From the NCBI GenBank assembly GCA_042570465.1, contig JBHPGO010000003.1:1-56882 (forward strand): 56,882 nucleotides of DNA. The letters are read 5' to 3'. Below the pieces are notes generated by a model, which searched no databases, had not been told where the DNA came from, and saw nothing but the letters and a program-made list of their open reading frames with translations. Position 1 is the stretch's first letter. The number at the start of each line of letters is the position of its first letter. The position numbers were made by a program, and so were the translations under genes. Source of the stretch: Patescibacteria group bacterium. Lineage in GTDB: Bacteria > Patescibacteriota > Microgenomatia > PFEM01 > JBHPGO01. Below, one piece after another: positions 5,461 to 49,149 of this stretch.

Positions 5461-6015
5461 TTACTTGCCAGCTTTTTCTTTTTTGATCTTTTTGATAATT
5501 ATGTCGACCAACTTAATCGGATCGGTTGCAAAAACCACCTTTCTTCTTCCTTTTTTGGCCACCTCCAAAATTCTGCGAACTTCATCAGCAATCCCACCCG
5601 AACCCTCCAATACTCCAACAATCTCATTTTCCTCATAAGCACTGGTAAATTCATTTAAGGTTCCGATCCGGCCATCAACCACGATCGTTGCGTCAGCTGA
5701 CCTAACCATCAATAGATTTCTACCCGTATAACCAAACTCGGCGTAAATCATGTGATCAAATATCTTGGGGTCAGCTGGCAATCGGTATCGACCAACATGC
5801 TCTGCCTCACTGCCAGCCGGAGAAAAACCAATCACTGCTCCACCAACTTTTTTAGCTTCCACTGCCGCCGCAAACGGCACGCCAGTTGTAGCTCCGGTAA
5901 TTAATACATGACCACGACTGGCAATTTCTTTACCGATTTTTTTAGCCAAAGACATGGCTTTTTCGGCATTTTCACCACTGGCTCCTCCGGAAATACAAAT
6001 CTTATATCGAGGCAT
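5461..6015 (-). CDS. LOG/SLOG-family nucleotide-binding protein
   Basis: LITGATTGVP, GRN, GRIGTLNE motifs. Confidence 0.8.
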   Translation of the reverse strand: MPRYKICISGGASGENAEKAMSLAKKIGKEIASRGHVLITGATTGVPFAAAVEAKKVGGAVIGFSPAGSEAEHVGRYRLPADPKIFDHMIYAEFGYTGRNLLMVRSADATIVVDGRIGTLNEFTSAYEENEIVGVLEGSGGIADEVRRILEVAKKGRRKVVFATDPIKLVDIIIKKIKKEKAGK

Positions 6016-8493: not shown

Positions 8494-8558
8494 AAATCAA
8501 TCCGCCAGCTGGCGGACAAAATGTAATTTAAAATGTAAAAATTTTGAATTTTTATTTG

Positions 8559-26034: not shown

Positions 26035-26988
26035 GTGGTAAGATTGAATCTAGTGAATAAAGAATCTCGTAAATCTATAATTACAGTAATCCTGCTACTT
26101 CTATCTCCTCTTCTTTCCTGGTCCCTAACTCCAATTACAATGATTCCAGCAGCAATAATTGGCAGCTTTGTTACGAGAGGCTGTAAAGGCTCAATGTGTG
26201 GTTTTGCTGAAGGTATTTTTATCACGGTTTTTCTTAATATTATTGCGGCTTATATTATTTCCCTCAGTATTTATTTATTGACTCATAAAAAAGAAAAGCC
26301 CAGAAAAAAAATTATCGTTGCAAGCTTACTCCTTTTATACTACGCAGCTTTGGTATCTGGGTTTATTTTATTTGCCAGGCATGAACAAGGAAAGTTAGAA
26401 AGAAAAAATCTGGAGGTTATTGAATCTCTACAGACGTTGGAAGCAAAAGATATTGTTTTTGTTGAAAGGACAGTGCGGATAAACAAAACTGACTGGAAAA
26501 TTTATACAAAAGACAATTTGGCTTATCAGATTAAGTACCCAAAAAACTTTAGAATTCAAGACCACCAGGCTCCAACTAACTATGTTTTTCGTGCCCCTGA
26601 TGATTCTTACCCTTCTGCTAAGTGGAACAGAAACAATCAATTTTTCACTCTGGGAGGGTTCAATAAAAAATTCCAACAATTTCCTGATGACAATGAAGCG
26701 ATAAATCAAGCTATCAAGAATATAAATAATGCAAACATTAAAACTCCCTCATTTCCTACCAAAATCAATGAGCCTGCTGAAAAATCTATTTCAACTCGGG
26801 GGTGGAAATTCTATTTTATTGAAAAAGGTAGTAGGAAAACTACAAAAGAAGGTTTGGAATTTGATGAATTATCTATCGTTATCAATGTTCCTGGGAGGGG
26901 ATATTTATTTTGGGGAGGACATACAACTTTTGAAGGTGGGCTTGAACTAATCAAACAGGTTGTTGAGGAAGTGGAGGAGATTAGATAG
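26035..26988 (+). CDS. membrane protein with PsbP-like C-terminal domain (cassette cargo)
   Basis: TM helices, then WKIYT...YQIKYP motif. Confidence 0.6.
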   Translation: MVRLNLVNKESRKSIITVILLLLSPLLSWSLTPITMIPAAIIGSFVTRGCKGSMCGFAEGIFITVFLNIIAAYIISLSIYLLTHKKEKPRKKIIVASLLLLYYAALVSGFILFARHEQGKLERKNLEVIESLQTLEAKDIVFVERTVRINKTDWKIYTKDNLAYQIKYPKNFRIQDHQAPTNYVFRAPDDSYPSAKWNRNNQFFTLGGFNKKFQQFPDDNEAINQAIKNINNANIKTPSFPTKINEPAEKSISTRGWKFYFIEKGSRKTTKEGLEFDELSIVINVPGRGYLFWGGHTTFEGGLELIKQVVEEVEEIR

Positions 26989-40918: not shown

Positions 40919-42427
40919 CTATTTTACAAAAACCACGGCTAGTTTGTCTTGATAAGCTACTTGCCAGCCGGCTAATAAAAGCTCTTCTCTCAAACTAAAG
41001 ATATCATCATCCCTTTTTAAAAAACCAGAAACTAAAGAGGCCAATGATTTTTTAGGCGCTGGTATTAAAATATGGGTCACTTGGTGTTTCTCAAAAATCT
41101 TCCGGAAATCTTTCTTTCCGGTAAAAATCTCTATTTCCTCCCGAAAAGCCGAATAATCATTTTGCTCCCAAATCGCCATCCGACCATCGCCAAAAACTTT
41201 TTTTTCCGGATGTTTCCAAATCAAATACCCTCCCCAACTATAAACCGAAAAAAGATTTCCCTCTATCTTCTCTTCTTTTAAGAAAGTGATTGCCTTGGTC
41301 GGATAAAAGCTTTCTTCCTTAAACCGATCTAAGCTAGCCAGCTGGTCCTTAAAAGAAAATATCACTAAAAACAATCCGGCTATCCCTAACCAAAACTGCC
41401 AATTATTAATTTTTTTAAAAACTTTCTTTTGAACCATCAGTCGGAAAAAATCTTCGATGTAAGAACTAAGTAATGGCAAGGTAAAAAGGAAAAAATAGAT
41501 CATCAATCGCCGACTCAAAAATCCAACAATAAAGAAAGTTAAAGCAGTTACTTTTTCAAAAATCGTCCCTTTTTCTTTAAAAACAAACAATAAGGCCCAA
41601 AAAATTCCTGTGTAAATTATCATCGCAAAATTAAAAGAGCTATAGGGAAGCCATTCAGAAATGTAGTAGTGAATTTTTTGACCTTGGATCATTTCCTCAA
41701 AAATTAACCGATAAATTGCCTCTTGATAGGGATTAGCCATGATGGCCGCCAAGCTGATAACCAAAGCGATTAGAACCAAGCTTAAATGACCAATCACTTT
41801 TTTTTGACGTTTGACCAGGAAATAAATGTCGACCCCCGCGGCGATCAGTAAAATAATTAACCCCAGAGAAAAACCGGCGTGTAAGTTCGCCCAAGCCCAA
41901 AAAATCAAAGGCAGCAATATTAACCACTTTAGGTCTTGGTAAGATTTTTTGATCGCAAAATAGACCAAAACTGCCAAGAAATAACTGATCATTTTCGGCC
42001 GAACGCTGATAAAGTCAAATGAGGCTAAAGCCGCCAGAATCAGTGGTCCCAAAAAATAATAAATTTTTTTAGGTAAAGCCTGGCACATAAAAGCCATTGC
42101 CCCAAGCAACCCACCCACAATTGCCAGGCTCCAATAACCTATTCTGGAATAACCTAAGTAAATTAGGACATCTGTCAGCCAAGAATGAGCCAGCCAAGGG
42201 TAGTCCGGCATGGTGTAAGAAAAAAGGTCTTTTTGTGGCACGGTTTTGTTTTGCCAAATCCACTCTCCGGTTTTAAGTTGCCAACCAAAATCAGGATCCA
42301 AAAAATAATTGGCCAAAAATGAAAAAACCAACCAGAGGGACAGAAAGCAAAACAACCACAAAATTCGCTTCATCCAATTTTTTTCCCGCATATTTCCCGC
42401 GTTATTAACGCAAAGTGAAACAGTCAA
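40919..42427 (-). CDS. multi-pass membrane protein, GT-C glycosyltransferase-like
   Basis: DPDFGWQL..G, WANLHAGF, ISEW, WGGYLIW, DGR. Confidence 0.65.
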   Translation of the reverse strand: MTVSLCVNNAGNMREKNWMKRILWLFCFLSLWLVFSFLANYFLDPDFGWQLKTGEWIWQNKTVPQKDLFSYTMPDYPWLAHSWLTDVLIYLGYSRIGYWSLAIVGGLLGAMAFMCQALPKKIYYFLGPLILAALASFDFISVRPKMISYFLAVLVYFAIKKSYQDLKWLILLPLIFWAWANLHAGFSLGLIILLIAAGVDIYFLVKRQKKVIGHLSLVLIALVISLAAIMANPYQEAIYRLIFEEMIQGQKIHYYISEWLPYSSFNFAMIIYTGIFWALLFVFKEKGTIFEKVTALTFFIVGFLSRRLMIYFFLFTLPLLSSYIEDFFRLMVQKKVFKKINNWQFWLGIAGLFLVIFSFKDQLASLDRFKEESFYPTKAITFLKEEKIEGNLFSVYSWGGYLIWKHPEKKVFGDGRMAIWEQNDYSAFREEIEIFTGKKDFRKIFEKHQVTHILIPAPKKSLASLVSGFLKRDDDIFSLREELLLAGWQVAYQDKLAVVFVK

Positions 42428-42453
42428 CTTCTCACCAATAGTAAATACTTTCT

Positions 42454-42711
42454 CTAAATCCCAAGCCTAATTATAATCTTTGTACAAAATGGTGTGCCGT
42501 TTTTAGCAGCTGTCACCAAATCTTCCTCGAGATTTCTTTGACTTACCAATGCAACTGCTCTATTAACTGCAGGCCCCCAATCTAAACAAGCTGTTTCTTG
42601 AGGATGTTCTCGAAATCTGTCTTCTAATTTTCTTGCTCGCCCCTCAAGACCTTCAAGTCGCTCAGCTCCCGAATGATTTTCAAAAGAATTGAGTTTTTCC
42701 ACAACTCTCAT
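42454..42711 (-). CDS. hypothetical protein
   Basis: RBS AAGGAGGG upstream. Confidence 0.5.
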   Translation of the reverse strand: MRVVEKLNSFENHSGAERLEGLEGRARKLEDRFREHPQETACLDWGPAVNRAVALVSQRNLEEDLVTAAKNGTPFCTKIIIRLGI

Positions 42712-42747
42712 CCCTCCTTTCTAAGTATTTTTAGCAAAAACCTTGTA

Positions 42748-42850
42748 GCGGTGGGGGCGGGATTCGCCATGAACCAGAATAAATTCGGTACATGGCGCCC
42801 TATACCGTGTCCCGACCGAAATTCGGGACTCTGGTATACGGGCGAACCCC
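42748..42850 (-). pseudogene. tRNA-Ser-like 3' fragment with double-hairpin insertion in the T-loop
   Basis: GGGGTTCG[insert]AATCCCGCCCCCACCGC; no 5' half. Confidence 0.7.
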
Positions 42851-42896
42851 TTAAGTAATACTTTACCCAGCCGCTGTTTCGACATTAACTAACTTG

Positions 42897-42983
42897 CGGA
42901 GAGGGAGGGATTCGAACCCTCGATGACCTTTCGGCCATACACGCTTTCCAAGCGTGCTCGTTAAGCCACTCTGACACCTCTCC
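42897..42983 (-). tRNA. tRNA-Ser(GGA)
   Basis: cloverleaf, long variable arm, CACGC-TTGGAAA-GCGTG. Confidence 0.95.
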
Positions 42984-43012
42984 TTATTAATTAATAATTT
43001 TAAAACCTACGG

Positions 43013-43085
43013 CGCCTCCGGAGGGAATTGAACCCCCAATCTTTGGTTCCGGAAACCACTGCTTTATCCGTTAAGCTACGGAGGC
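43013..43085 (-). tRNA. tRNA-Arg(CCG)
   Basis: cloverleaf, anticodon loop TTCCGGA. Confidence 0.9.
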
Positions 43086-43090
43086 AAGAG

Positions 43091-43177
43091 CGGTGGGAGA
43101 GGGATTTGAACCCCCGTGGGACTTACATCCCGCAAGCTTTTCGAAAGCTGCCCGTTTAGCCACTCCGGCATCCCACC
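43091..43177 (-). tRNA. tRNA-Ser(CGA)
   Basis: cloverleaf, loop TTCGAAA, long variable arm. Confidence 0.9.
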
Positions 43178-43200
43178 AAAATTGACAATATTAAAAAACA

Positions 43201-43360
43201 GGATTCGCCTTGAACCAGAGTCCGGTTTACCGGACACGGTTCATGGCGCCCTATACCGTGTTCGCTGAAAGCGAATTCTGGTATACGGGCGAACCCCCGT
43301 GGGACTTACATCCCGCAAGCTTTTCGAAAGCTGCCCGTTTAGCCACTCCGGCATCCCACC
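43201..43360 (-). pseudogene. duplicate 5' part of tRNA-Ser(CGA) with double-hairpin T-loop insertion
   Basis: 43292-43360 identical to 43109-43177; insertion 43208-43289; acceptor 3' strand missing. Confidence 0.85.
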
Positions 43361-43422
43361 GAAATAAACTCCAAATCACAAGCACCAAATTTCAAATTAC
43401 AAATGATTATCAAAAATTTCAG

Positions 43423-43495
43423 CACGCCCGGCGTGACTCGAACACGCAACCTTCTCGTCCGCAACGAGATGCTCTATCCATTGAGCTACGGGCGC
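43423..43495 (-). tRNA. tRNA-Arg(GCG)
   Basis: TCTCG-TTGCGGA-CGAGA anticodon arm. Confidence 0.92.
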
Positions 43496-43630
43496 TCTTG
43501 TGTCTGGCTAGTCGGACCACAAACCGATGTTTTATCTCCACCTCTGGCGGAAATTTGAGGGCCTTCACCTTCACTTAACTTAACCACAATTATATCAGTT
43601 TTCAGTGAGATTAACTTAAAATCAGTGTGA

Positions 43631-44185
43631 TTAGTGCTTTTCTAGAGGAACACGTTTCGAAAGCCAAGAGCTGGCATTATCTGCCCAGGTTTTTTCGGGC
43701 TCTTCAAACAAGAGGAATTGAGAAAGAGTCTCTTGAACCTTTTTATCACTAATGTCTCCTAAAATCATGATCAGGCGGTACGGAAGCGAGATTCTGTTTT
43801 CAACATAAAGAACTTTTTGGTCGAACTTAACTTCAAACCAGAACCGACCCAAATCACCCCATTGGTACTGCCGACCACCAGTAATAATCCCACGATTTGT
43901 GATTTGATGATGAGCCTCTCTTGGTTCAATCGTCGCCATAATAAAGGCAAAGAAAGCCAAGGCAATAATGACCACCACCAGAATCCATTCTTCAGAAAGA
44001 AGCAAAATTACGATCAAAAAGAAAGCCATCGCCCCAATCGTGGTAAAGTATTCCCGACTCCGCTTTTTAAAAAGTCTTTCCGGAGAGGTCCAGTCGAGCA
44101 ATATTTTTAATGCTTCTGGCCTCACTACCTGGACATTATCTCGTGATTTTAATGTACTCTTGGCAGTTTTATTAATTTCAGGCAT
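43631..44185 (-). CDS. two-TM conserved hypothetical membrane protein
   Basis: W.SPER.FKKRSREYF, YQWGDLGRFWF. Confidence 0.7.
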   Translation of the reverse strand: MPEINKTAKSTLKSRDNVQVVRPEALKILLDWTSPERLFKKRSREYFTTIGAMAFFLIVILLLSEEWILVVVIIALAFFAFIMATIEPREAHHQITNRGIITGGRQYQWGDLGRFWFEVKFDQKVLYVENRISLPYRLIMILGDISDKKVQETLSQFLLFEEPEKTWADNASSWLSKRVPLEKH

Positions 44186-44248
44186 TAGTTTTAGCTCTCG
44201 TAAATATCTAAAAATTACTATATCACATCAGTAATCATTTGTTAATCG

Positions 44249-44338
44249 TGGCGGAGGGGGCGAGATTTGAACTCGCGTGGGAATAAATTCCCCCACGGTT
44301 TTCAAGACCGGGCCGTTTAACCACTCCGGCACCCCTCC
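44249..44338 (-). tRNA. tRNA-Ser(TGA)
   Basis: cloverleaf, loop CTTGAAA, encoded CCA. Confidence 0.93.
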
Positions 44339-44358
44339 AAAATATCTTCTTATAAAAA

Positions 44359-44449
44359 TGGCGGAGGAGGTGGGATTTGAACCCACGTGTGCCTTTCAGC
44401 ACGCTGGTTTAGCAAACCAGTGTAATGGACCGGACTATACGACTCCTCC
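44359..44449 (-). tRNA. tRNA-Ser(GCT)
   Basis: CTGGT-TTGCTAA-ACCAG, encoded CCA. Confidence 0.95.
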
Positions 44450-44722
44450 TAGAAAGTTTTTAAGCTGCAATTTCAAAACCCTTTTGCCTTTTGTTGTCTT
44501 AAAGTAGCGTTCTCTTTTCTCTGCGTCTTTTTTATTTAAATATGATTCAAAGTATATTAGCTTAAATGGCACCCTGTGTCTTGTTGACCTGACTTTTCCC
44601 TCTCGATGTTCAGCTATCCGCCTTGTTAAATTATTACTTAAACCTGAATAGAATTGATCATTTTTCAAAAGCAAAATATAGACATAGAAAAAGTCTTTGT
44701 CCAGCAAGGTGGGATTCGCCAT
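44435..44722 (-). CDS. small GIY-YIG nuclease between tRNA-Ser(GCT) copies
   Basis: YVYIL..FYSG...RRIAEH...STRHRVP..LIYFE...AEKRERYFKT; stop codon lies inside the tRNA. Confidence 0.85.
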   Translation of the reverse strand: MANPTLLDKDFFYVYILLLKNDQFYSGLSNNLTRRIAEHREGKVRSTRHRVPFKLIYFESYLNKKDAEKRERYFKTTKGKRVLKLQLKNFLGGVV

Positions 44723-44876
44723 GAACCAGAGTCCGATTGAAAGATCGGACACGGTTCACGGCGCCCTATACCGTGTCCGGCAAAGCCGGATTCTGGTATA
44801 CGGGCGAACCCACGTGTGCCTTTCAGCACGCTGGTTTAGCAAACCAGTGTAATGGACCGGACTATACGACTCCTCC
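44708..44876 (-). pseudogene. duplicate of tRNA-Ser(GCT) with double-hairpin T-loop insertion and broken acceptor
   Basis: 44807-44882 identical to 44380-44455; insertion 44719-44804. Confidence 0.85.
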
Positions 44877-44917
44877 TAGAAACCGTGTCCTTATTTTACC
44901 AAAATTCAACCCTAGTT

Positions 44918-45592
44918 TCACCTGCACAGGGTCAAACCCCAAACTTCTTTAACTCCGGCTTTTTTTAGTGCCCGGCCACCTTCTCTTAAAGTTGAGCCGG
45001 TTGTCCAAACATCATCAAAAAGAAAAATACAGGACTTTAAAGACAAATTCTGATAATCATCGTTAACCTCAAAAGCCCCTCTGACATTTTCAAGACGCTG
45101 TTTTCCTTTAAGTTTGGTTTGAGATTGGGTGTACCTGGTTCGCTTAAGAAGGTCAGGCAAAAACTGCCAACCCATCTTTTGAGCCAATAATTTTCCCAAA
45201 ACCTCTGCCTGATTAAAGCCACGTTTTCTTTCTTTCCTCGGGTGAAGGGGAATTGGAGTGAGTAAAATTTCTTGAAAATGAGGAGCCATTGACTTTGCTG
45301 GCCCAATTGACTTTTCTATCAGTTCTTCAGCCAGGTCAGTCAAATGTTTGTATTTTAATTTTTTAACTGCCTCTCTCACTATCCCTCGATAACTAAACAG
45401 AGAAATCAGACCATTGAGCGAATGATTTTTAAGGCAAAACAAGTGAGTCTTTCCCAAAACAACCCCCTTTCGACAGGTCGGACAAATTTGTGTTCCCACT
45501 AATTGAGCCCCCCGCCAGCAACCTTGGCAAAAATACTGCCCCCAACGACCACAACCTAGGCAGCGGCGGGGGAAAAGAAAGTTGAGAATCAT
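44918..45592 (-). CDS. comF: ComF-family protein
   Basis: N-terminal double zinc ribbon, PIPLH..RGFNQA, DDVWTTGST. Confidence 0.9.
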   Translation of the reverse strand: MILNFLFPRRCLGCGRWGQYFCQGCWRGAQLVGTQICPTCRKGVVLGKTHLFCLKNHSLNGLISLFSYRGIVREAVKKLKYKHLTDLAEELIEKSIGPAKSMAPHFQEILLTPIPLHPRKERKRGFNQAEVLGKLLAQKMGWQFLPDLLKRTRYTQSQTKLKGKQRLENVRGAFEVNDDYQNLSLKSCIFLFDDVWTTGSTLREGGRALKKAGVKEVWGLTLCR

Positions 45593-45831
45593 GGCTTTAT
45601 TAAACGCTTGTTGCGAAAAGCAAACCCTGAGCTTGTTTTCAGATATTTTTCAAAATCAAGAGCTAATGACTTTTGCTCGAAAGCTGCATAAAAAAGAAGC
45701 TTTACTGGTCGATACTTTCTTGTCTGGTTAACATTTCCTTTTTGATGATTGTTAATTCGTTTTCTTAAATTCGAAGAATAGCCAGTATATAGCCTACCAT
45801 TGCTCAATTCAATGATATACGCATAATACAT
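45589..45831 (-). CDS. small GIY-YIG nuclease downstream of tmRNA
   Basis: YAYII..LYTGYSSNLRKRINNH...FEKYLKTSSG. Confidence 0.85.
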   Translation of the reverse strand: MYYAYIIELSNGRLYTGYSSNLRKRINNHQKGNVNQTRKYRPVKLLFYAAFEQKSLALDFEKYLKTSSGFAFRNKRLIKP

Positions 45832-46026
45832 TAACCAAATCTTAACATTTTCAAAGCAATTGTCCCACTCCATCTCGCCCCTCCAAATGGTGCGAGATTA
45901 CTCGGGACACACTTCGAGTTTTTGTTTTATGAGGAAAGTGAGCTTGCCACATTTCACCCCAACATGGTTGGGATAAAAAAGTGTGGCCTGCCACGCGAAG
46001 CCCCGACAAAATGTCGGGGCGAAGTG

Positions 46027-46377
46027 TGGAGATGGTGGGTATCGAACCCACGTCCGAAAAAAAGAAATTAAAAACTTCTACAAGCTTAGTCAACTGTTAA
46101 TTGTCGTCTTAACCTGATCCTGTTGACCGGAAAGTTAAAACCAAAGACTGATTAGGCTTGGCTCTGAAGGTCCAGTCAAACCTACAGAGCTGCATCCCAA
46201 CTGAGTTTATGCCCAAATTATCCCGCTGGGAGAGGACAAAGAGGACACCTAGTTACGCGAAAGCGAGACTAGGCTGGCTTTGTTTATTGCCAGTTAGTCT
46301 TGATCCTTTTTTACGAGTTTTGATCAAACTCGGCTTGCCGTTTTTAAAGAACTTTTCCCGTCGATCCGTACATCCCC
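46027..46377 (-). ncRNA. ssrA: tmRNA; tag (A)GNKQSQPSLAFA
   Basis: 5' GGGGATG..GGATCGAC, 3' GTGGGTTCGATACCCACCATCTCCA; tag ORF after TAACT; adjacent to smpB. Confidence 0.92.
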
Positions 46378-46422
46378 ATGTAGCTAATTTATAATTACCA
46401 CTTTTCAAATTCCAAATAAGTT

Positions 46423-46630
46423 AACCGTTCAAATTGTTCAAACCGTTTAAATTGTTTAAGGCGTTTAACTCGATTCAATCCTAATCACTAATTTCTAATT
46501 TTCTGTATTCTAAATTCTATACCCTATGCCCTATGCCCTATGCCCTATGCCCTAACGCCTAATTCCTAATTTCTAATTACTAATTACTAGTTACTAGTTA
46601 CTAGTTACTAGTACCTATACCCTATACCCT
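46423..46630. repeat. 9-mer then 7-mer tandem repeat array; 46463-46589 is an inverted copy of 52244-52363
   Basis: AACCGTTCA-type, CCCTATG, CTAATTA, CTAGTTA units. Confidence 0.9.
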
Positions 46631-47077
46631 AATTCCTGTTTCCTTATCTCTCAACAATCTCTCCTGCTCTCTTTTAAAATCCCTTTCCTTGATCTTTTTT
46701 CGCTTTTCGTATTTTCTTTTTCCTTTAGCTAAAGCTATTGAAAGCTTAATATTTCGTCCCTTAGTATAGCACGAAATAGGCACAATCGTCAATTTTTTAG
46801 TCTGAGTTCCAAGAAGCAGTTTTAATATCTCTTTTTTGTGCAAAAGAAGCTTACGGGTCCGAGTAGGCTCATAATTTTGATTGTCGGCCATTGGGTAGGC
46901 AGGGATGTGGGCATTGTGAAACCAAGCTTCACCTTGACTAACCCGAATAAAGCTTTCTTCCAAATTAATCCGACCAGCCTTGACAGATTTAACCTCAGCT
47001 CCGGTTAAAACCAACCCGGCTTCAAATTTTTCAAGCAATTCATAATCATAACGAGCTCTCCGGTTAACAACTTTCAT
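46622..47077 (-). CDS. smpB: SsrA-binding protein
   Basis: NRRARYDY, EAGLVLTGAEVKS, RTRKLLLHKKEI. Confidence 0.97.
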   Translation of the reverse strand: MKVVNRRARYDYELLEKFEAGLVLTGAEVKSVKAGRINLEESFIRVSQGEAWFHNAHIPAYPMADNQNYEPTRTRKLLLHKKEILKLLLGTQTKKLTIVPISCYTKGRNIKLSIALAKGKRKYEKRKKIKERDFKREQERLLRDKETGIRV

Positions 47078-47136: not shown

Positions 47137-49149
47137 CTAATTCCTAATATCTATCTCAAATATTTTGCTCCCACTCAAAAACCAAATCTTTCCCACTTCT
47201 TCCGAACAAACAATCCTTTCGGCCTGAGCAAGCTTTTCGTTTCGGTAGCTGGCTTGATATTCACCCGACTTTGCCAAAACAACCACCTGTGAATTGCCTT
47301 GATCCAAAAGATAGAGATTCTCAGCCTCATCATTGGTATAAATAGCCACCGGACGGTTAAAAGCCTCTTCCAAACCAGCGATTCCAAAAGCATCTTTTAA
47401 TCCCCGGCTAAATTTCCAAATAATACCTCCTTCTTTTAAAACCCAAATCGAACCATCAATGGCCATTGAAACCGCTCCTGTAAAATCAAGCCCTTCTTCT
47501 TTTAACCAAAATCGCTCATTGCCAAAACCAGTTTCAGCAACCGGATACTGCCAAAGACCAACTCCTTCTTCAAGCAAGTACAAATTGCTGGCAAAAGAGA
47601 GAAAATCAATCGAGCGAGCCCTTACTTCCTTAGAGCTCACCACCCATTGCTCTTTTTTACTTAGCCGATTAATCGACAAAATCCCGTTTTCAGAAAGAAC
47701 AAATACTTTGGGTAAATAGGCCGCGACTTGAAGCGCCCCTTTTAAATTTTCTCCTCCGGCAATAATGGCTGATTTCTTTTCCTGAGTATCTAATTCATAA
47801 ACAGAATTATTTTGTTTGTCTAAAATGATCATTTTCTTGCCCGAAAAAGCCCAATCATCTCCCCTGGCCTTGGGCTTAATTAGCTCTAAGTCAAAAAATT
47901 CACTCACTTCAACCGAACGTTCTTTGATGACCTGGCTCAAACGCTGATTCAGAAGAGTTTTGAATTTCAAAAACTCTTCTGAACCCAAACCTTCAGTCTC
48001 AATTCGTTGATTAAGTTCTTGGACTTCTAAAAAGTATTGCCTTGCTAAAGCAGGGTTGAGATCTAAAAGAGCCTCACCTTCTGCTAATTTCTGCTGAGCC
48101 TCCTCAAACCAAATATCAGTTTTTTGCTCAATATTAATCTTTTTTCTTTGTTGACCACCAAAATACACGCTGACCGCTAAAATCAATAACAAAACAAAAA
48201 CAACCGAAAAGATTGTTTTTTTGGACCGCTCTGGCTTGATCCCCAAAGCTCCTTGACCAGAAGCTGAAAGACCCTGTCTTTCTTGCTTCAGGTAAATAGC
48301 TTTTTTTTCCAAACGCTTTTGAAATTGATAAAACCACTTACCAACTGTTCGAGCCAATAATTCCTTACCCGAAAAGCCAATTTTAAACTTTTTATCTCCT
48401 GATCCAGATTGAGTTTGATCCCTGACTTTAGTTACCAAACGATCGCTTTCCCGATTATCGTTTACCTTAACCGCCTTGGCCCCGACAGTTGAAATATCAA
48501 CTTCAGATTCTTGCCGAAACTGACAAATTACTGCCGCCGCTAAACCACTTTCCTCATGACCATGAATAACCGGCGCTAAGGTTTCGGCGGCTTCATCCGG
48601 AACCCGGCTGGCTAAAGCCGCTTTGAGAACTCCGTCTGCTACCCGAGCAAAAAAACCGGCAGTTCCCAACAAAAAAATATCGCTTTCTTGTAAAAAACCA
48701 CTGGCAACCTCGATCGTTTGACTTCCGCTTAGAACTCTTCCCATTTGGCCATTTCTCTGTAAAATCGCCGCCCCGCTTCCCAGGATAGCTAAATACAAGA
48801 CATTATCCAAAACAACCGCAGCTCCAATTTCGACCTTAATCCCAACCTCAGATTCAGGGTCACTGCTGGCGGCTTCTTGACAAACCTTATTAACCGCCTT
48901 TTCAAGCCTTTCTAAAGCTCCCCCTGATAAATTACCGTAATATTCCTCATGAAGCCGAGAAATTACTTCCCGACCAGTCGCCACCGCTTCTACTCCTTGC
49001 GATAAACCATTCAAAGAAAGAACCGCCAATAGTTCACCCCGTAATTTTCTTTGACCGGGATCCTCCGGAGAAAAAAGATGAACCTGTGACCAGGAGTTTT
49101 CAGTTGCGGTTCCGACTACCTTGGCAGTTTCAAACAAAAATCTTTGCAT
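47137..49149 (-). CDS. membrane protein with PP2C-like N-terminal domain and C-terminal beta-propeller
   Basis: central TM helix; SMAIDGSIWVL, LYLLDQGNSQVVVL. Confidence 0.7.
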   Translation of the reverse strand: MQRFLFETAKVVGTATENSWSQVHLFSPEDPGQRKLRGELLAVLSLNGLSQGVEAVATGREVISRLHEEYYGNLSGGALERLEKAVNKVCQEAASSDPESEVGIKVEIGAAVVLDNVLYLAILGSGAAILQRNGQMGRVLSGSQTIEVASGFLQESDIFLLGTAGFFARVADGVLKAALASRVPDEAAETLAPVIHGHEESGLAAAVICQFRQESEVDISTVGAKAVKVNDNRESDRLVTKVRDQTQSGSGDKKFKIGFSGKELLARTVGKWFYQFQKRLEKKAIYLKQERQGLSASGQGALGIKPERSKKTIFSVVFVLLLILAVSVYFGGQQRKKINIEQKTDIWFEEAQQKLAEGEALLDLNPALARQYFLEVQELNQRIETEGLGSEEFLKFKTLLNQRLSQVIKERSVEVSEFFDLELIKPKARGDDWAFSGKKMIILDKQNNSVYELDTQEKKSAIIAGGENLKGALQVAAYLPKVFVLSENGILSINRLSKKEQWVVSSKEVRARSIDFLSFASNLYLLEEGVGLWQYPVAETGFGNERFWLKEEGLDFTGAVSMAIDGSIWVLKEGGIIWKFSRGLKDAFGIAGLEEAFNRPVAIYTNDEAENLYLLDQGNSQVVVLAKSGEYQASYRNEKLAQAERIVCSEEVGKIWFLSGSKIFEIDIRN

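Follow-up and report, generated by a model that had tools for sequence, protein, structure and literature searches.

A double-hairpin DNA element associated with small GIY-YIG nuclease genes at tRNA loci of a Patescibacteria genome

Analysis of a 56,882-nt stretch of DNA (hereafter, the window) from a bacterium of the Patescibacteria group (GenBank assembly GCA_042570465.1, contig JBHPGO010000003.1, positions 1 to 56,882) revealed three copies, E1 to E3, of a double-hairpin DNA element of ~80 nt, denoted E, lodged in fragments of tRNA genes. One of the copies, E3, abuts an intact open reading frame (ORF) for a 95-aa GIY-YIG nuclease that ends within an intact tRNA-Ser gene, and the same order recurs elsewhere, so that the association with GIY-YIG genes, suggested as a check in the initial annotation of the window, is real. 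We favour the view, which we hold with confidence and doubt in about equal measure, that E serves as the hairpin part of a compact selfish GIY-YIG cassette nesting in tRNA genes. In what follows, G000 is the genome holding the window and C-numbers are its contigs, whereas G- and L-numbers denote other genomes and loci, respectively.

Element E, its tRNA fragments and the adjoining nuclease gene

All tRNA genes of the E region lie on the minus strand and, read on that strand, all three copies of E share the layout GGTTCG-hairpin-CG-hairpin-CGAATCC. The initial annotation had described three CG-flanked double hairpins at 42767-42842, 43208-43289 and 44719-44804, and both the coordinates and the layout are confirmed. 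The features of the region, in the order in which they are read on the minus strand, are as follows:

44806-44882, minus strand: displaced 5' piece of tRNA-Ser(GCT), comprising nt 1-71 and the 6 nt that precede them, the same as in the intact gene 360 nt downstream (BLAST, 71/71)
44717-44806, minus strand: E3 with flanking CG dinucleotides, hairpins at 44719-44804 (model score 91.5 bits, E-value 7.6e-19; folding as single-stranded DNA)
44435-44722, minus strand: GIY-YIG nuclease ORF, 95 aa, single domain (Pfam PF01541, E-value 4.5e-14, residues 12-80)
44707-44718, minus strand: 12 nt prolonging the tRNA T-loop and T-stem past E3 (CGAATCCCACCT), after which tRNA homology stops (comparison with the intact 3' end)
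44359-44449, minus strand: intact tRNA-Ser(GCT), T-loop TTCAAAT (tRNA calls, BLAST)
43291-43360, minus strand: displaced 5' piece of tRNA-Ser(CGA), nt 1-70, the same as in the intact gene (BLAST, 70/70)
43206-43291, minus strand: E2 with flanking CG, hairpins at 43208-43289 (model score 92.3 bits; folding as single-stranded DNA)
43178-43207, minus strand: CGAATCCT and a 22-nt spacer at the position that the GIY-YIG gene occupies in the E3 layout, a putative scar after gene loss
43090-43177, minus strand: intact tRNA-Ser(CGA), T-loop TTCAAAT (tRNA calls, BLAST)
42896-42983, minus strand: intact tRNA-Ser(GGA), T-loop TTCGAAT, immediately upstream of the E1 fragment (tRNA calls, BLAST)
42845-42895, minus strand: spacer between tRNA-Ser(GGA) and E1, tRNA-like in its last 7-8 nt (GGGGTTCG) only (read by hand)
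42765-42844, minus strand: E1 with flanking CG, hairpins at 42767-42842, nested module missing from the second arm (model score 78.1 bits; folding as single-stranded DNA)
42748-42766, minus strand: tRNA 3' end of 19 nt (T-loop half, 3' strands of the T-stem and acceptor stem) after E1 (read by hand)

The 13-nt core of E is represented by three exact matches and one with two mismatches, against 0.36 expected, and none of 100 shuffles reached four. A covariance model of E, built from 12 copies, recovers E1-E3 with E-values of 1e-15 to 5e-19. Folded as single-stranded DNA (ssDNA), both strands of all three copies yield z-scores of -5.0 to -6.7 relative to shuffled sequences, with 0/200 shuffles equalling them, and the flanks of E3 and E1 pair as well, closing a three-way junction. 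A search of positions 42000-47000 against all Rfam families, with E-values up to 1, returned tRNAs, tmRNA and chance-level matches only, and none for E. The reads of one DNA run (0.05 share) cover tRNA-like bits and a 154-nt exact piece at tRNA-Arg(CCG)/Ser(CGA), not the E copies or their junctions; nevertheless, an assembly artefact appears unlikely, because the identical architecture is found in independent assemblies.

The ORF adjoining E3 has a possible ATG codon within the last stem of E3, although its start is uncertain, and its stop codon, TAG at 44435-44437, lies inside tRNA-Ser(GCT). PF01541 is the sole Pfam match of the predicted protein, which comprises the catalytic domain only, with no separate DNA-binding domain. 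Among solved structures, the UPF0213 proteins 1ZG2 and 1YWL come nearest, and no NCBIfam family scores above its cut-off, a weak sub-threshold match to a group I intron endonuclease being the only one.

The initial annotation regarded the interrupted sequences as tRNA-Ser copies with an insert, two of them being exact 5' duplicates of the neighbouring tRNA-Ser(CGA) and tRNA-Ser(GCT) genes. The duplicates are indeed exact over 70/70 and 71/71 nt, respectively, but the interrupted sequences turn out to be fragments instead of whole genes: the tRNA continues only as CGAATCC(T) after E2 and only as CGAATCCCACCT after E3, the 3' strand of the acceptor stem being absent in both, whereas E1 represents the reverse case, in which the 19-nt tRNA 3' end follows E and no recognisable tRNA 5' part precedes it. 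Once E and one CG are removed, the E2 and E3 fragments differ from their intact neighbours at the T-loop G/A position only. The fragments end 7-12 nt from E, which does not agree with the original proposal, in which E inserts into a duplicated gene while an immune copy is kept, and fits instead a remnant displaced by a nuclease cassette that either imports the tRNA or restores it. Having only 22 nt where the gene would stand, in a layout otherwise like that of E3 and of the tRNA-Phe, tRNA-Lys and tRNA-Leu(TAA) units described below, E2 reads as a scar of that layout and looks like an E3-type unit that has lost its nuclease gene. Conceivably, E1 and E2 mark what remains of one tRNA-Ser(CGA) gene, divided in two by an insert of three tRNAs. 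By eye, the 19-nt 3' end at E1 has 2/19 mismatches to tRNA-Ser(CGA) and 3/19 to tRNA-Ser(GGA); in the reconstituted tRNA-Ser(CGA), the acceptor strands would pair at 6/7 positions, but the T-stem contains a mismatch and the inner modules of E1 and E2 differ.

Each arm of E is a 9-10-bp stem enclosing ACC-AGA ... AC-GGT, and the ACC-AGA polarity runs on the top strand in the first arm and on the bottom strand in the second. Because the arms are oppositely oriented, the hairpin met first is alike on either strand and every site is matched on both strands, as is the case for all seven G000 sites, the two strands of which fold equally well. The nested module, originally reported in five of six arms, is present as AGA..hairpin..AC in precisely that number, with the second arm of E1 as the exception; arms lacking it also occur at loci L008, L018, L021 and L045. 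In an alignment of 52 distinct rows, fitted to the model and drawn from the two strands of each site, 96.4% of the cells are paired and both sides change in 23 of the 26 pairs, a result reached by 0/500 shuffles, with slid controls at 24-40%; wobble-type and A-C-type mispairs are about equally common, that is, there is no strand bias. The observation that the inner stems differ between copies yet stay paired holds as far as pairing is concerned, but not as point covariation, given that the inner stems are different mini-palindromes, some of which occur on their own elsewhere in the genome, and are exchanged as modules. For instance, an 18-nt hairpin found in an E arm of L011 stands by itself in L021, where it replaces an anticodon arm; a palindrome of 16 nt (TCCGCC-NNNN-GGCGGA type) has 15 sites in G000, including an E arm on C29, the break of the tRNA-Lys cassette and window positions 8501-8516, some in AT-rich spacers and some within loops of other hairpins; and the inner hairpin of E3 is also found at two non-E sites on C14.

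The junctions obey recurrent rules. The script used for their analysis returned 16 rows for 15 loci, three of which (E3, C29 and L008) were mis-anchored due to the G/A difference and were read by hand, showing CG on both sides of these T-loop sites. A 2-nt target duplication (CG, CA, TA or TG) is present at nine of the 13 correctly anchored loci, and at neither of the two D-arm loci. The linker between the arms can pair with the flanks (CG/CG/CG, TA/TA/TA and, in L018, TG/CA/TG), with L021 as an exception (CA/TAG/CA). On the truncated side, tRNA homology stops 7-12 nt from E, mostly at 6-9 nt: the right-side distances are 7 in E2, the tRNA-Leu variant of L011 and L009, 8 in L013, 9 in L018, 10 in L008 and 12 in E3, and the left-side distances are 7-8 in E1, L021 and C29, 6 at the tRNA-Thr site of L011, and longer in C1, L012 and L025.

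Nuclease cassettes and E copies in the rest of the genome and in relatives

Nine GIY-YIG-like frames were identified in G000, six of them in units that end inside, or no more than 3 nt before, a co-oriented tRNA gene, namely, at tRNA-Ser(GCT), tRNA-Phe and tRNA-Lys and in a triple array at tRNA-Leu(TAA). Of the other three, one precedes tRNA-Trp by 114 nt, one follows the tmRNA at a distance of 129 nt, and one is not close to any tRNA. The Phe, Lys and Leu(TAA) units are ordered like that of E3, with a tRNA piece, hairpin(s), 7-12 nt of tRNA, the nuclease gene and the intact tRNA, and carry hairpins other than E at D-loop or anticodon-arm positions. The Phe cassette (C1 42182-42560, minus strand) has four mini-hairpins in the D-loop at the break, and in the Lys cassette (C16 2055-2370, minus strand) the 16-nt palindrome replaces part of the D and anticodon arms. 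The Leu(TAA) array (C1 25843-26641, plus strand, with tRNA-Leu(TAA) at 26644) consists of two full units and one partial GIY-YIG unit, which start with tRNA nt 1-20, a 46-nt GC-rich hairpin in the D-loop and 10 further tRNA nt. The hairpin family of this array is also found twice in a D-loop fragment upstream of tRNA-Leu(CAG) (C1 ~47340-47430). The window itself contains a second small GIY-YIG ORF (80 aa, Pfam E-value 2.4e-16) at 45589-45831 on the minus strand and, ~190 nt upstream of it, a tmRNA gene at 46026-46377, also on the minus strand; the spacer between the two includes several hairpins and a stretch resembling the antisense of the tmRNA 3' end.

The covariance model detects seven E sites in G000, on C3, C1 (47 kb) and C29. 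The C1 copy is located behind tRNA-Leu(CAG), after a copy of tRNA nt 32-68, whereas the three C29 copies surround tRNA-Pro(CGG), two of them within a 141-nt unit repeated exactly in tandem, the tRNA 3' end included. On C29, E is oriented oppositely relative to the tRNA, and the intact neighbour again differs from the fragment at the T-loop G/A position only. Together with E1, the C1 and C29 copies represent a mirror form of the layout: intact tRNA, spacer, short tRNA piece, E and tRNA 3' end. A tRNA-Pro(CGG)-like sequence with the acceptor, D and anticodon arms, but without the T-arm, lies upstream of the third C29 copy (~5640-5745, minus strand). G000 also contains ORF-less units that copy tRNA 3' ends (C1 41554-41837, C9 27881-28216, C23 1283-1532 and 1638-1670): two 142-nt units of tRNA-Gly(GCC) and two 168-nt units of tRNA-Ile(GAT), all of which terminate with the 21 final nt of the tRNA, from the T-loop CGA onwards, one 3'-end unit of tRNA-Thr(GGT), and a copy of nt 43-75 of tRNA-Tyr. 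The Gly, Ile and Thr units have in common a short T-arm-like hairpin and a conserved motif.

All seven G000 copies reside in tRNA-derived GGTTCG..CGA T-arms, whereas tRNA genes account for only 32 of the 1692 TTCGA sites of the genome, so that the enrichment in tRNA T-loops anticipated by the initial annotation is evident. The targeting of GGTTCGAATCC does not hold as a rule, however, because E relatives elsewhere occupy D-arms, anticodon loops and non-tRNA spacers. The T-loop sequence TTCAAAT, which had been noted in the intact tRNA-Ser(CGA) and tRNA-Ser(GCT) genes and taken to confer immunity, is present in both, and at three of four G000 loci as well as in L008 an A in the intact copy corresponds to a G in the fragment. 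As a general rule, immunity is not supported: TTCGA is kept in the intact gene at four other loci (C1 tRNA-Leu(CAG), L011 tRNA-Thr, L012 tRNA-Lys and L025 tRNA-Thr), and one E relative resides inside a TTCAAAT loop, with a CA duplication. The occurrence of TTCAAAT in three of the four tRNAs adjoining E, compared to seven TTCA loops among the 33 tRNA genes of G000, is only suggestive (P ~0.06, an estimate with a background of 9/33 genes with A at that T-loop position).

Among 60 relatives, none of which belongs to the family of G000, the exact E pattern gave no match outside G000. Pattern scans of genome and metagenome collections yielded seven contigs, of which L007, from a Lachnospiraceae contig, was discarded as a chance match to one arm only, lying in other sequence; the remaining six contigs contain seven sites. 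In L008, L009, L010 (two tandem units) and L013, a tRNA-Glu piece is followed by E, 7-10 nt of tRNA, TATAAT, 6-8 nt and the ATG codon of a GIY-YIG gene, with an intact tRNA-Glu after the nuclease gene in L008, L009 and L013; the L010 contig ends before that point. The E site is in the T-loop in L008 and in the D-arm in L009, L010 and L013. The record of L008 is labelled as an uncultured gammaproteobacterial metagenome-assembled genome, and the identical sequence is found in G181, which is assigned to the same class as G000. L011 and L012 display the mirror form behind tRNA-Thr and tRNA-Lys, respectively, and L011 additionally contains two tRNA-Leu(TAA) pieces in tandem, each with an E variant in its anticodon loop and a GIY-YIG gene behind it.

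Across the class, the E model matches 8 of 151 sampled genomes, G000 included, and we inspected 18 E sites in the seven others. Six sites have tRNA-like flanks, with E in T-loops (L016, L017, L024, L025 and L021) or in an anticodon loop (L018), the latter being followed by TATAAT, a GIY-YIG gene and tRNA-Gln. The other 12 are devoid of tRNA-like flanks: nine are near-identical copies in spacers of G071, two are in G153, and one is a single arm in G110. In total, an oriented hairpin stands beside a GIY-YIG gene at E3, L008, L009, L010, L013, L018, the E variant of L011 and a mini-E at L045. In L012 (12308-12364) and L021 (1940-2000, minus strand), a hairpin is found in place of the anticodon arm of a leftover tRNA copy, which implies that one leftover can bear hairpins in two loops.

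The L008 sequence, which is the same as L055 of G181, allows comparison with empty sites. In G241, G141 and G417, the same upstream gene is followed only by a spacer of ~100 nt and tRNA-Glu(CTC), whereas in G181 this locus holds a tRNA piece, E and the nuclease gene, with another, complete tRNA-Glu after them. The two tRNA-Glu sequences of G181, partial and complete, differ in the acceptor stem and T-arm and are identical in the middle, and both acceptor types exist among the relatives. This comparison appears to fit a unit that spreads by recombination at an orthologous locus, bringing a working tRNA with it.

In the phylogeny of the nucleases (49 tips, SH-like supports; the second, identical L011 nuclease and a fragment at C23 7372 were left out), the seven E-adjacent tips outside G000, two of which are one sequence, form an exclusive clade (0.755). 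The nuclease beside the L045 mini-E is the sister to this clade (0.81), and the E3 nuclease falls just outside of it, within a 12-tip clade (0.71). Homologues of the E3 nuclease are present in 318 of 401 sampled genomes of the class, a tally that includes the unpublished genome G088, which underlies no other claim made here. Around the closest of these homologues, the type of hairpin beside the nuclease changes quickly.

Comparison with known systems

The closest parallel is Ssn, a 94-aa single-domain GIY-YIG nuclease that is reported to bind oriented hairpin repeats (NTS/SRM) exclusively in single-stranded form and to cleave on their upstream side, ~7 nt ahead of the stem as gathered from the text and motif of the paper, and the gene of which is usually flanked by such repeats (Chenal et al., 2025, PMC11893778). 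The two systems share a GIY-YIG-only protein of ~95 aa encoded beside oriented hairpin repeats, a repeat family that also occurs away from the gene, and a cut a few nucleotides 5' of the hairpin, to be compared with the 7-12 nt that separate E from the cassette border. They differ in that E is an opposed hairpin pair with nested mini-palindromes and in that the gene described here lies within a tRNA locus, beside a displaced piece of the tRNA. In the Ssn paper, tRNA and Patescibacteria are each mentioned 0 times (PMC11893778), and no description of hairpin-tagged GIY-YIG cassettes in tRNA genes was found in the literature, the supplements of that paper not being covered.

T4 SegB, a GIY-YIG homing nuclease, recognises GGTTCRANTCC of tRNA genes within a site that spans 27 bp of duplex DNA, leaves 2-nt 3' ends and drags neighbouring tRNA genes along (PMC2330249). 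With its T-loop motif as target, its 2-nt overhangs and its co-inheritance with neighbouring tRNA genes, SegB offers a parallel to the loci described here, which likewise have a GIY-YIG gene among tRNA genes. Presence or absence between relatives, a feature of homing endonucleases, is seen here at the G181 sister locus in comparison with G241, G141 and G417. By contrast, the proteins studied here are ~80-95 aa long and consist of the catalytic domain only, and the SegB loci are not known to have a hairpin element or a displaced tRNA fragment. SegB is a larger, multi-domain protein.

Repetitive extragenic palindromes (REP) and their mosaic arrangements (BIME), as well as miniature inverted-repeat transposable elements (MITE), are short imperfect palindromes in opposed pairs that form ssDNA hairpins. 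E, too, consists of opposed imperfect palindromes, occurs as solo copies and has undergone a burst in one genome, G071. The difference from the REP/BIME systems and their RAYT transposases is that the RAYT-like genes here have other hairpins and that the G000 copies of E reside in tRNA fragments and are not scattered; the many extragenic copies typical of REP/BIME are not found in G000, where all seven are in tRNA T-arms, and were seen in G071 only. No transposase lies between the E arms; with regard to an autonomous MITE parent, the GIY-YIG gene is always outside both arms and no other candidate gene adjoins E. Nor do the loci resemble an integrase-type att island: the gap between fragment and intact gene is 22 to ~290 nt, and its sole ORF is the GIY-YIG gene. 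In fungal mitochondria, free-standing endonuclease genes carry a replacement piece of the invaded gene, the old piece being left as a pseudogene. The cassettes resemble these in the insertion into an essential gene, the function of which is saved by a duplicated segment with the displaced fragment beside it, and differ in that the fungal targets are protein-coding, the nucleases larger and the break without a hairpin.

Proposed mechanism, rival explanations and implications

The full cassette, as seen at E3, comprises a displaced tRNA piece, E at the break, 7-12 nt of tRNA, the 95-aa GIY-YIG gene and a complete working tRNA. That the nuclease recognises E is, in our estimation, an evenly balanced proposition. 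If it does, it would bind the E hairpins in ssDNA, as Ssn does with the SRM hairpins, and would cut a few nucleotides 5' of the hairpins, hence outside E on both strands. Cuts so placed would account both for the frequent cessation of tRNA homology 7-8 nt from E on one side and for the 2-nt target duplication (CG in the T-loop) that flanks E. Recombination would then carry the cassette to the same tRNA locus in related cells, and the tRNA that it supplies would keep the host alive.

Several observations weigh against this proposal, the mechanism of which is itself argued by analogy. The E-like repeats of G071 have multiplied (14 model matches; nine inspected, 9/9 non-tRNA), and in this genome (92% complete, 100 contigs) no E was found near any of the three GIY-YIG genes even with the filters off (best E-value 0.51), none of the three belonging to the E-adjacent clade. 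The supports in the nuclease tree are moderate and the proteins short; moreover, the E-adjacent nuclease loci were found via E and the remaining ones via the protein. When the 29 proteins closest to the E3 nuclease, from a set of 400 further genomes of the class, are considered, E is present upstream of the gene only twice, once as a strong and once as a weak match. No nuclease gene occupies the spacer of any of the eight mirror-form fragments (E1, C1, two on C29, L011-Thr, L012, L025 and L021), and the E3 gene, with its uncertain start codon, lacks the TATAAT that precedes the gene in relatives. The nearest solved structures of its product are UPF0213 proteins, the published SRM search motif fits 0/7 E copies while having four matches elsewhere in G000, and part of the apparent covariation of E is module exchange rather than compensatory mutation. 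Two sites in G000, at C13 ~2314 and C9 ~11951, are close fits to the SRM motif and resemble canonical NTS-type hairpins.

A bolder scheme, which we deem rather unlikely, envisages E as a self-contained, twofold-symmetric ssDNA module whose outer edges are cut, on both strands, by a tiny Ssn-like nuclease. Both E and the mini-palindromes nested in it would enter single-stranded loops of DNA hairpins, among them the T-, D- and anticodon loops of tRNA genes as well as the loops of E itself, and loop entry of this kind would explain the nested hairpins, the 2-nt duplications and the pairing of the central linker with the flanks; the flank-pairing linker would let the excised strand close into a dumbbell.

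Of the alternatives in which E is not part of the machinery, the one to be taken most seriously, although it is clearly less probable than the selfish cassette, holds that E is a passive filler that kills the target site: palindromes from a genomic pool of mini-elements would have landed in the break of the displaced tRNA piece, or been captured there as repeated cuts were repaired, the nuclease ignoring them, and would persist by splitting the T-loop motif, whereby the leftover piece is no longer recognised or cut. E indeed splits exactly the GGTTCG/AATCC motif needed by the tRNA-targeting SegB, unrelated hairpins take the place of E in the Phe, Lys and Leu(TAA) cassettes of G000, the break in the Lys cassette holding the 16-nt palindrome with its 15 genomic sites, the type of hairpin differs among the closest nuclease homologues, and the E-like repeats of G071 occur without a matching nuclease. 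On this account, however, one would not expect the E sequence to be conserved across distant genomes and tRNA targets in company with one nuclease lineage, and neither the oriented twofold design nor the border spacing of 7-12 nt is necessary for mere breakage of a site. More doubtful is the REP/MITE-like element of the initial annotation, mobilised by a RAYT-type or another transposase with a T-loop target, its insertions surviving only in dispensable tRNA fragments and the closeness of the GIY-YIG gene being incidental. The hairpin-repeat family, the inverted-repeat symmetry and the 2-nt duplication envisaged there all stand, and solo copies of E without a nuclease gene, the burst of near-identical copies in non-tRNA spacers of G071, the plentiful tRNA fragments of G000 as possible landing sites and Y1-transposase genes in 5/5 genomes checked are in keeping with this possibility. 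Yet the link to RAYT falls: the six Y1_Tnp genes of G000 that score over the cut-off (~230 aa, RAYT-like; C40 3988-4689, C53, C26, C19, C18 and C1 55470-56159) do not lie near E, and at least four of the six are bracketed by their own inverted hairpin pair, which differs in sequence from gene to gene (in C18 and C53 the flank is cut by the contig end). Furthermore, the seven G000 copies have diverged (84% identity between E2 and E3), which speaks against a recent burst in this genome, the fixed short distance between fragment end and E is unexpected had E landed in pre-existing fragments, and the E relatives that accompany a GIY-YIG gene use D-arm and anticodon-loop sites.

Two further possibilities place the function of E in RNA. 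That E acts in a transcript running from the old tRNA promoter through the nuclease gene to the working tRNA, as a processing or insulating element or as part of a promoter for a leaderless mRNA, would agree with its position between the promoter-proximal tRNA piece and the nuclease gene, with TATAAT 7-9 nt after E in five relatives, followed 6-8 nt further on by ATG in four (not in L018), and with the pairing of the E3 and E1 flanks that closes a three-way junction. Still more improbable than a transposase-driven element, this role is disfavoured by the equal folding of the two strands and the similar frequencies of wobble-type and A-C-type mispairs, with no strand bias, by the occurrence of E in both orientations relative to tRNA and nuclease gene, by a polarity motif that switches strands between the arms, a feature superfluous in an RNA read from one strand, by the lack of any Rfam family match, and by the fact that no convincing -35 box could be read within E, with the spacing checked in L008, L009 and L013. 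The insert does lie in a tRNA loop and its flanks can pair, as would suit a T-loop intron or a split tRNA, the interrupted copies being functional and the insert removed from the RNA; but with no 3' acceptor strand after the insert in E2 and E3, no 5' part in E1, calls by ARAGORN and Rfam confined to the intact neighbours, and an intact gene of the same anticodon beside each of E2 and E3, we consider this explanation very improbable indeed.

E provides a concrete, conserved and oriented candidate DNA substrate for a 95-aa protein, and such elements are a possible source of new site-specific ssDNA nucleases with defined hairpin targets. The cassette accounts for a common annotation puzzle in these genomes, namely, the partial copies and tandem fragments of tRNAs that occur, together with GC-rich palindromes, next to tRNA genes, and cautions that exchange of palindromic modules can mimic covariation in such hairpins. 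If the dumbbell scheme were true, it would represent a new mode of DNA movement based on a hydrolytic GIY-YIG nuclease, without a transposase or recombinase. If the cassette reading is correct, single-domain GIY-YIG nucleases would be the engine of a compact selfish element of tRNA genes in ultra-small Patescibacteria, a role beyond that of the accessory ssDNA nucleases as described for Neisseria.

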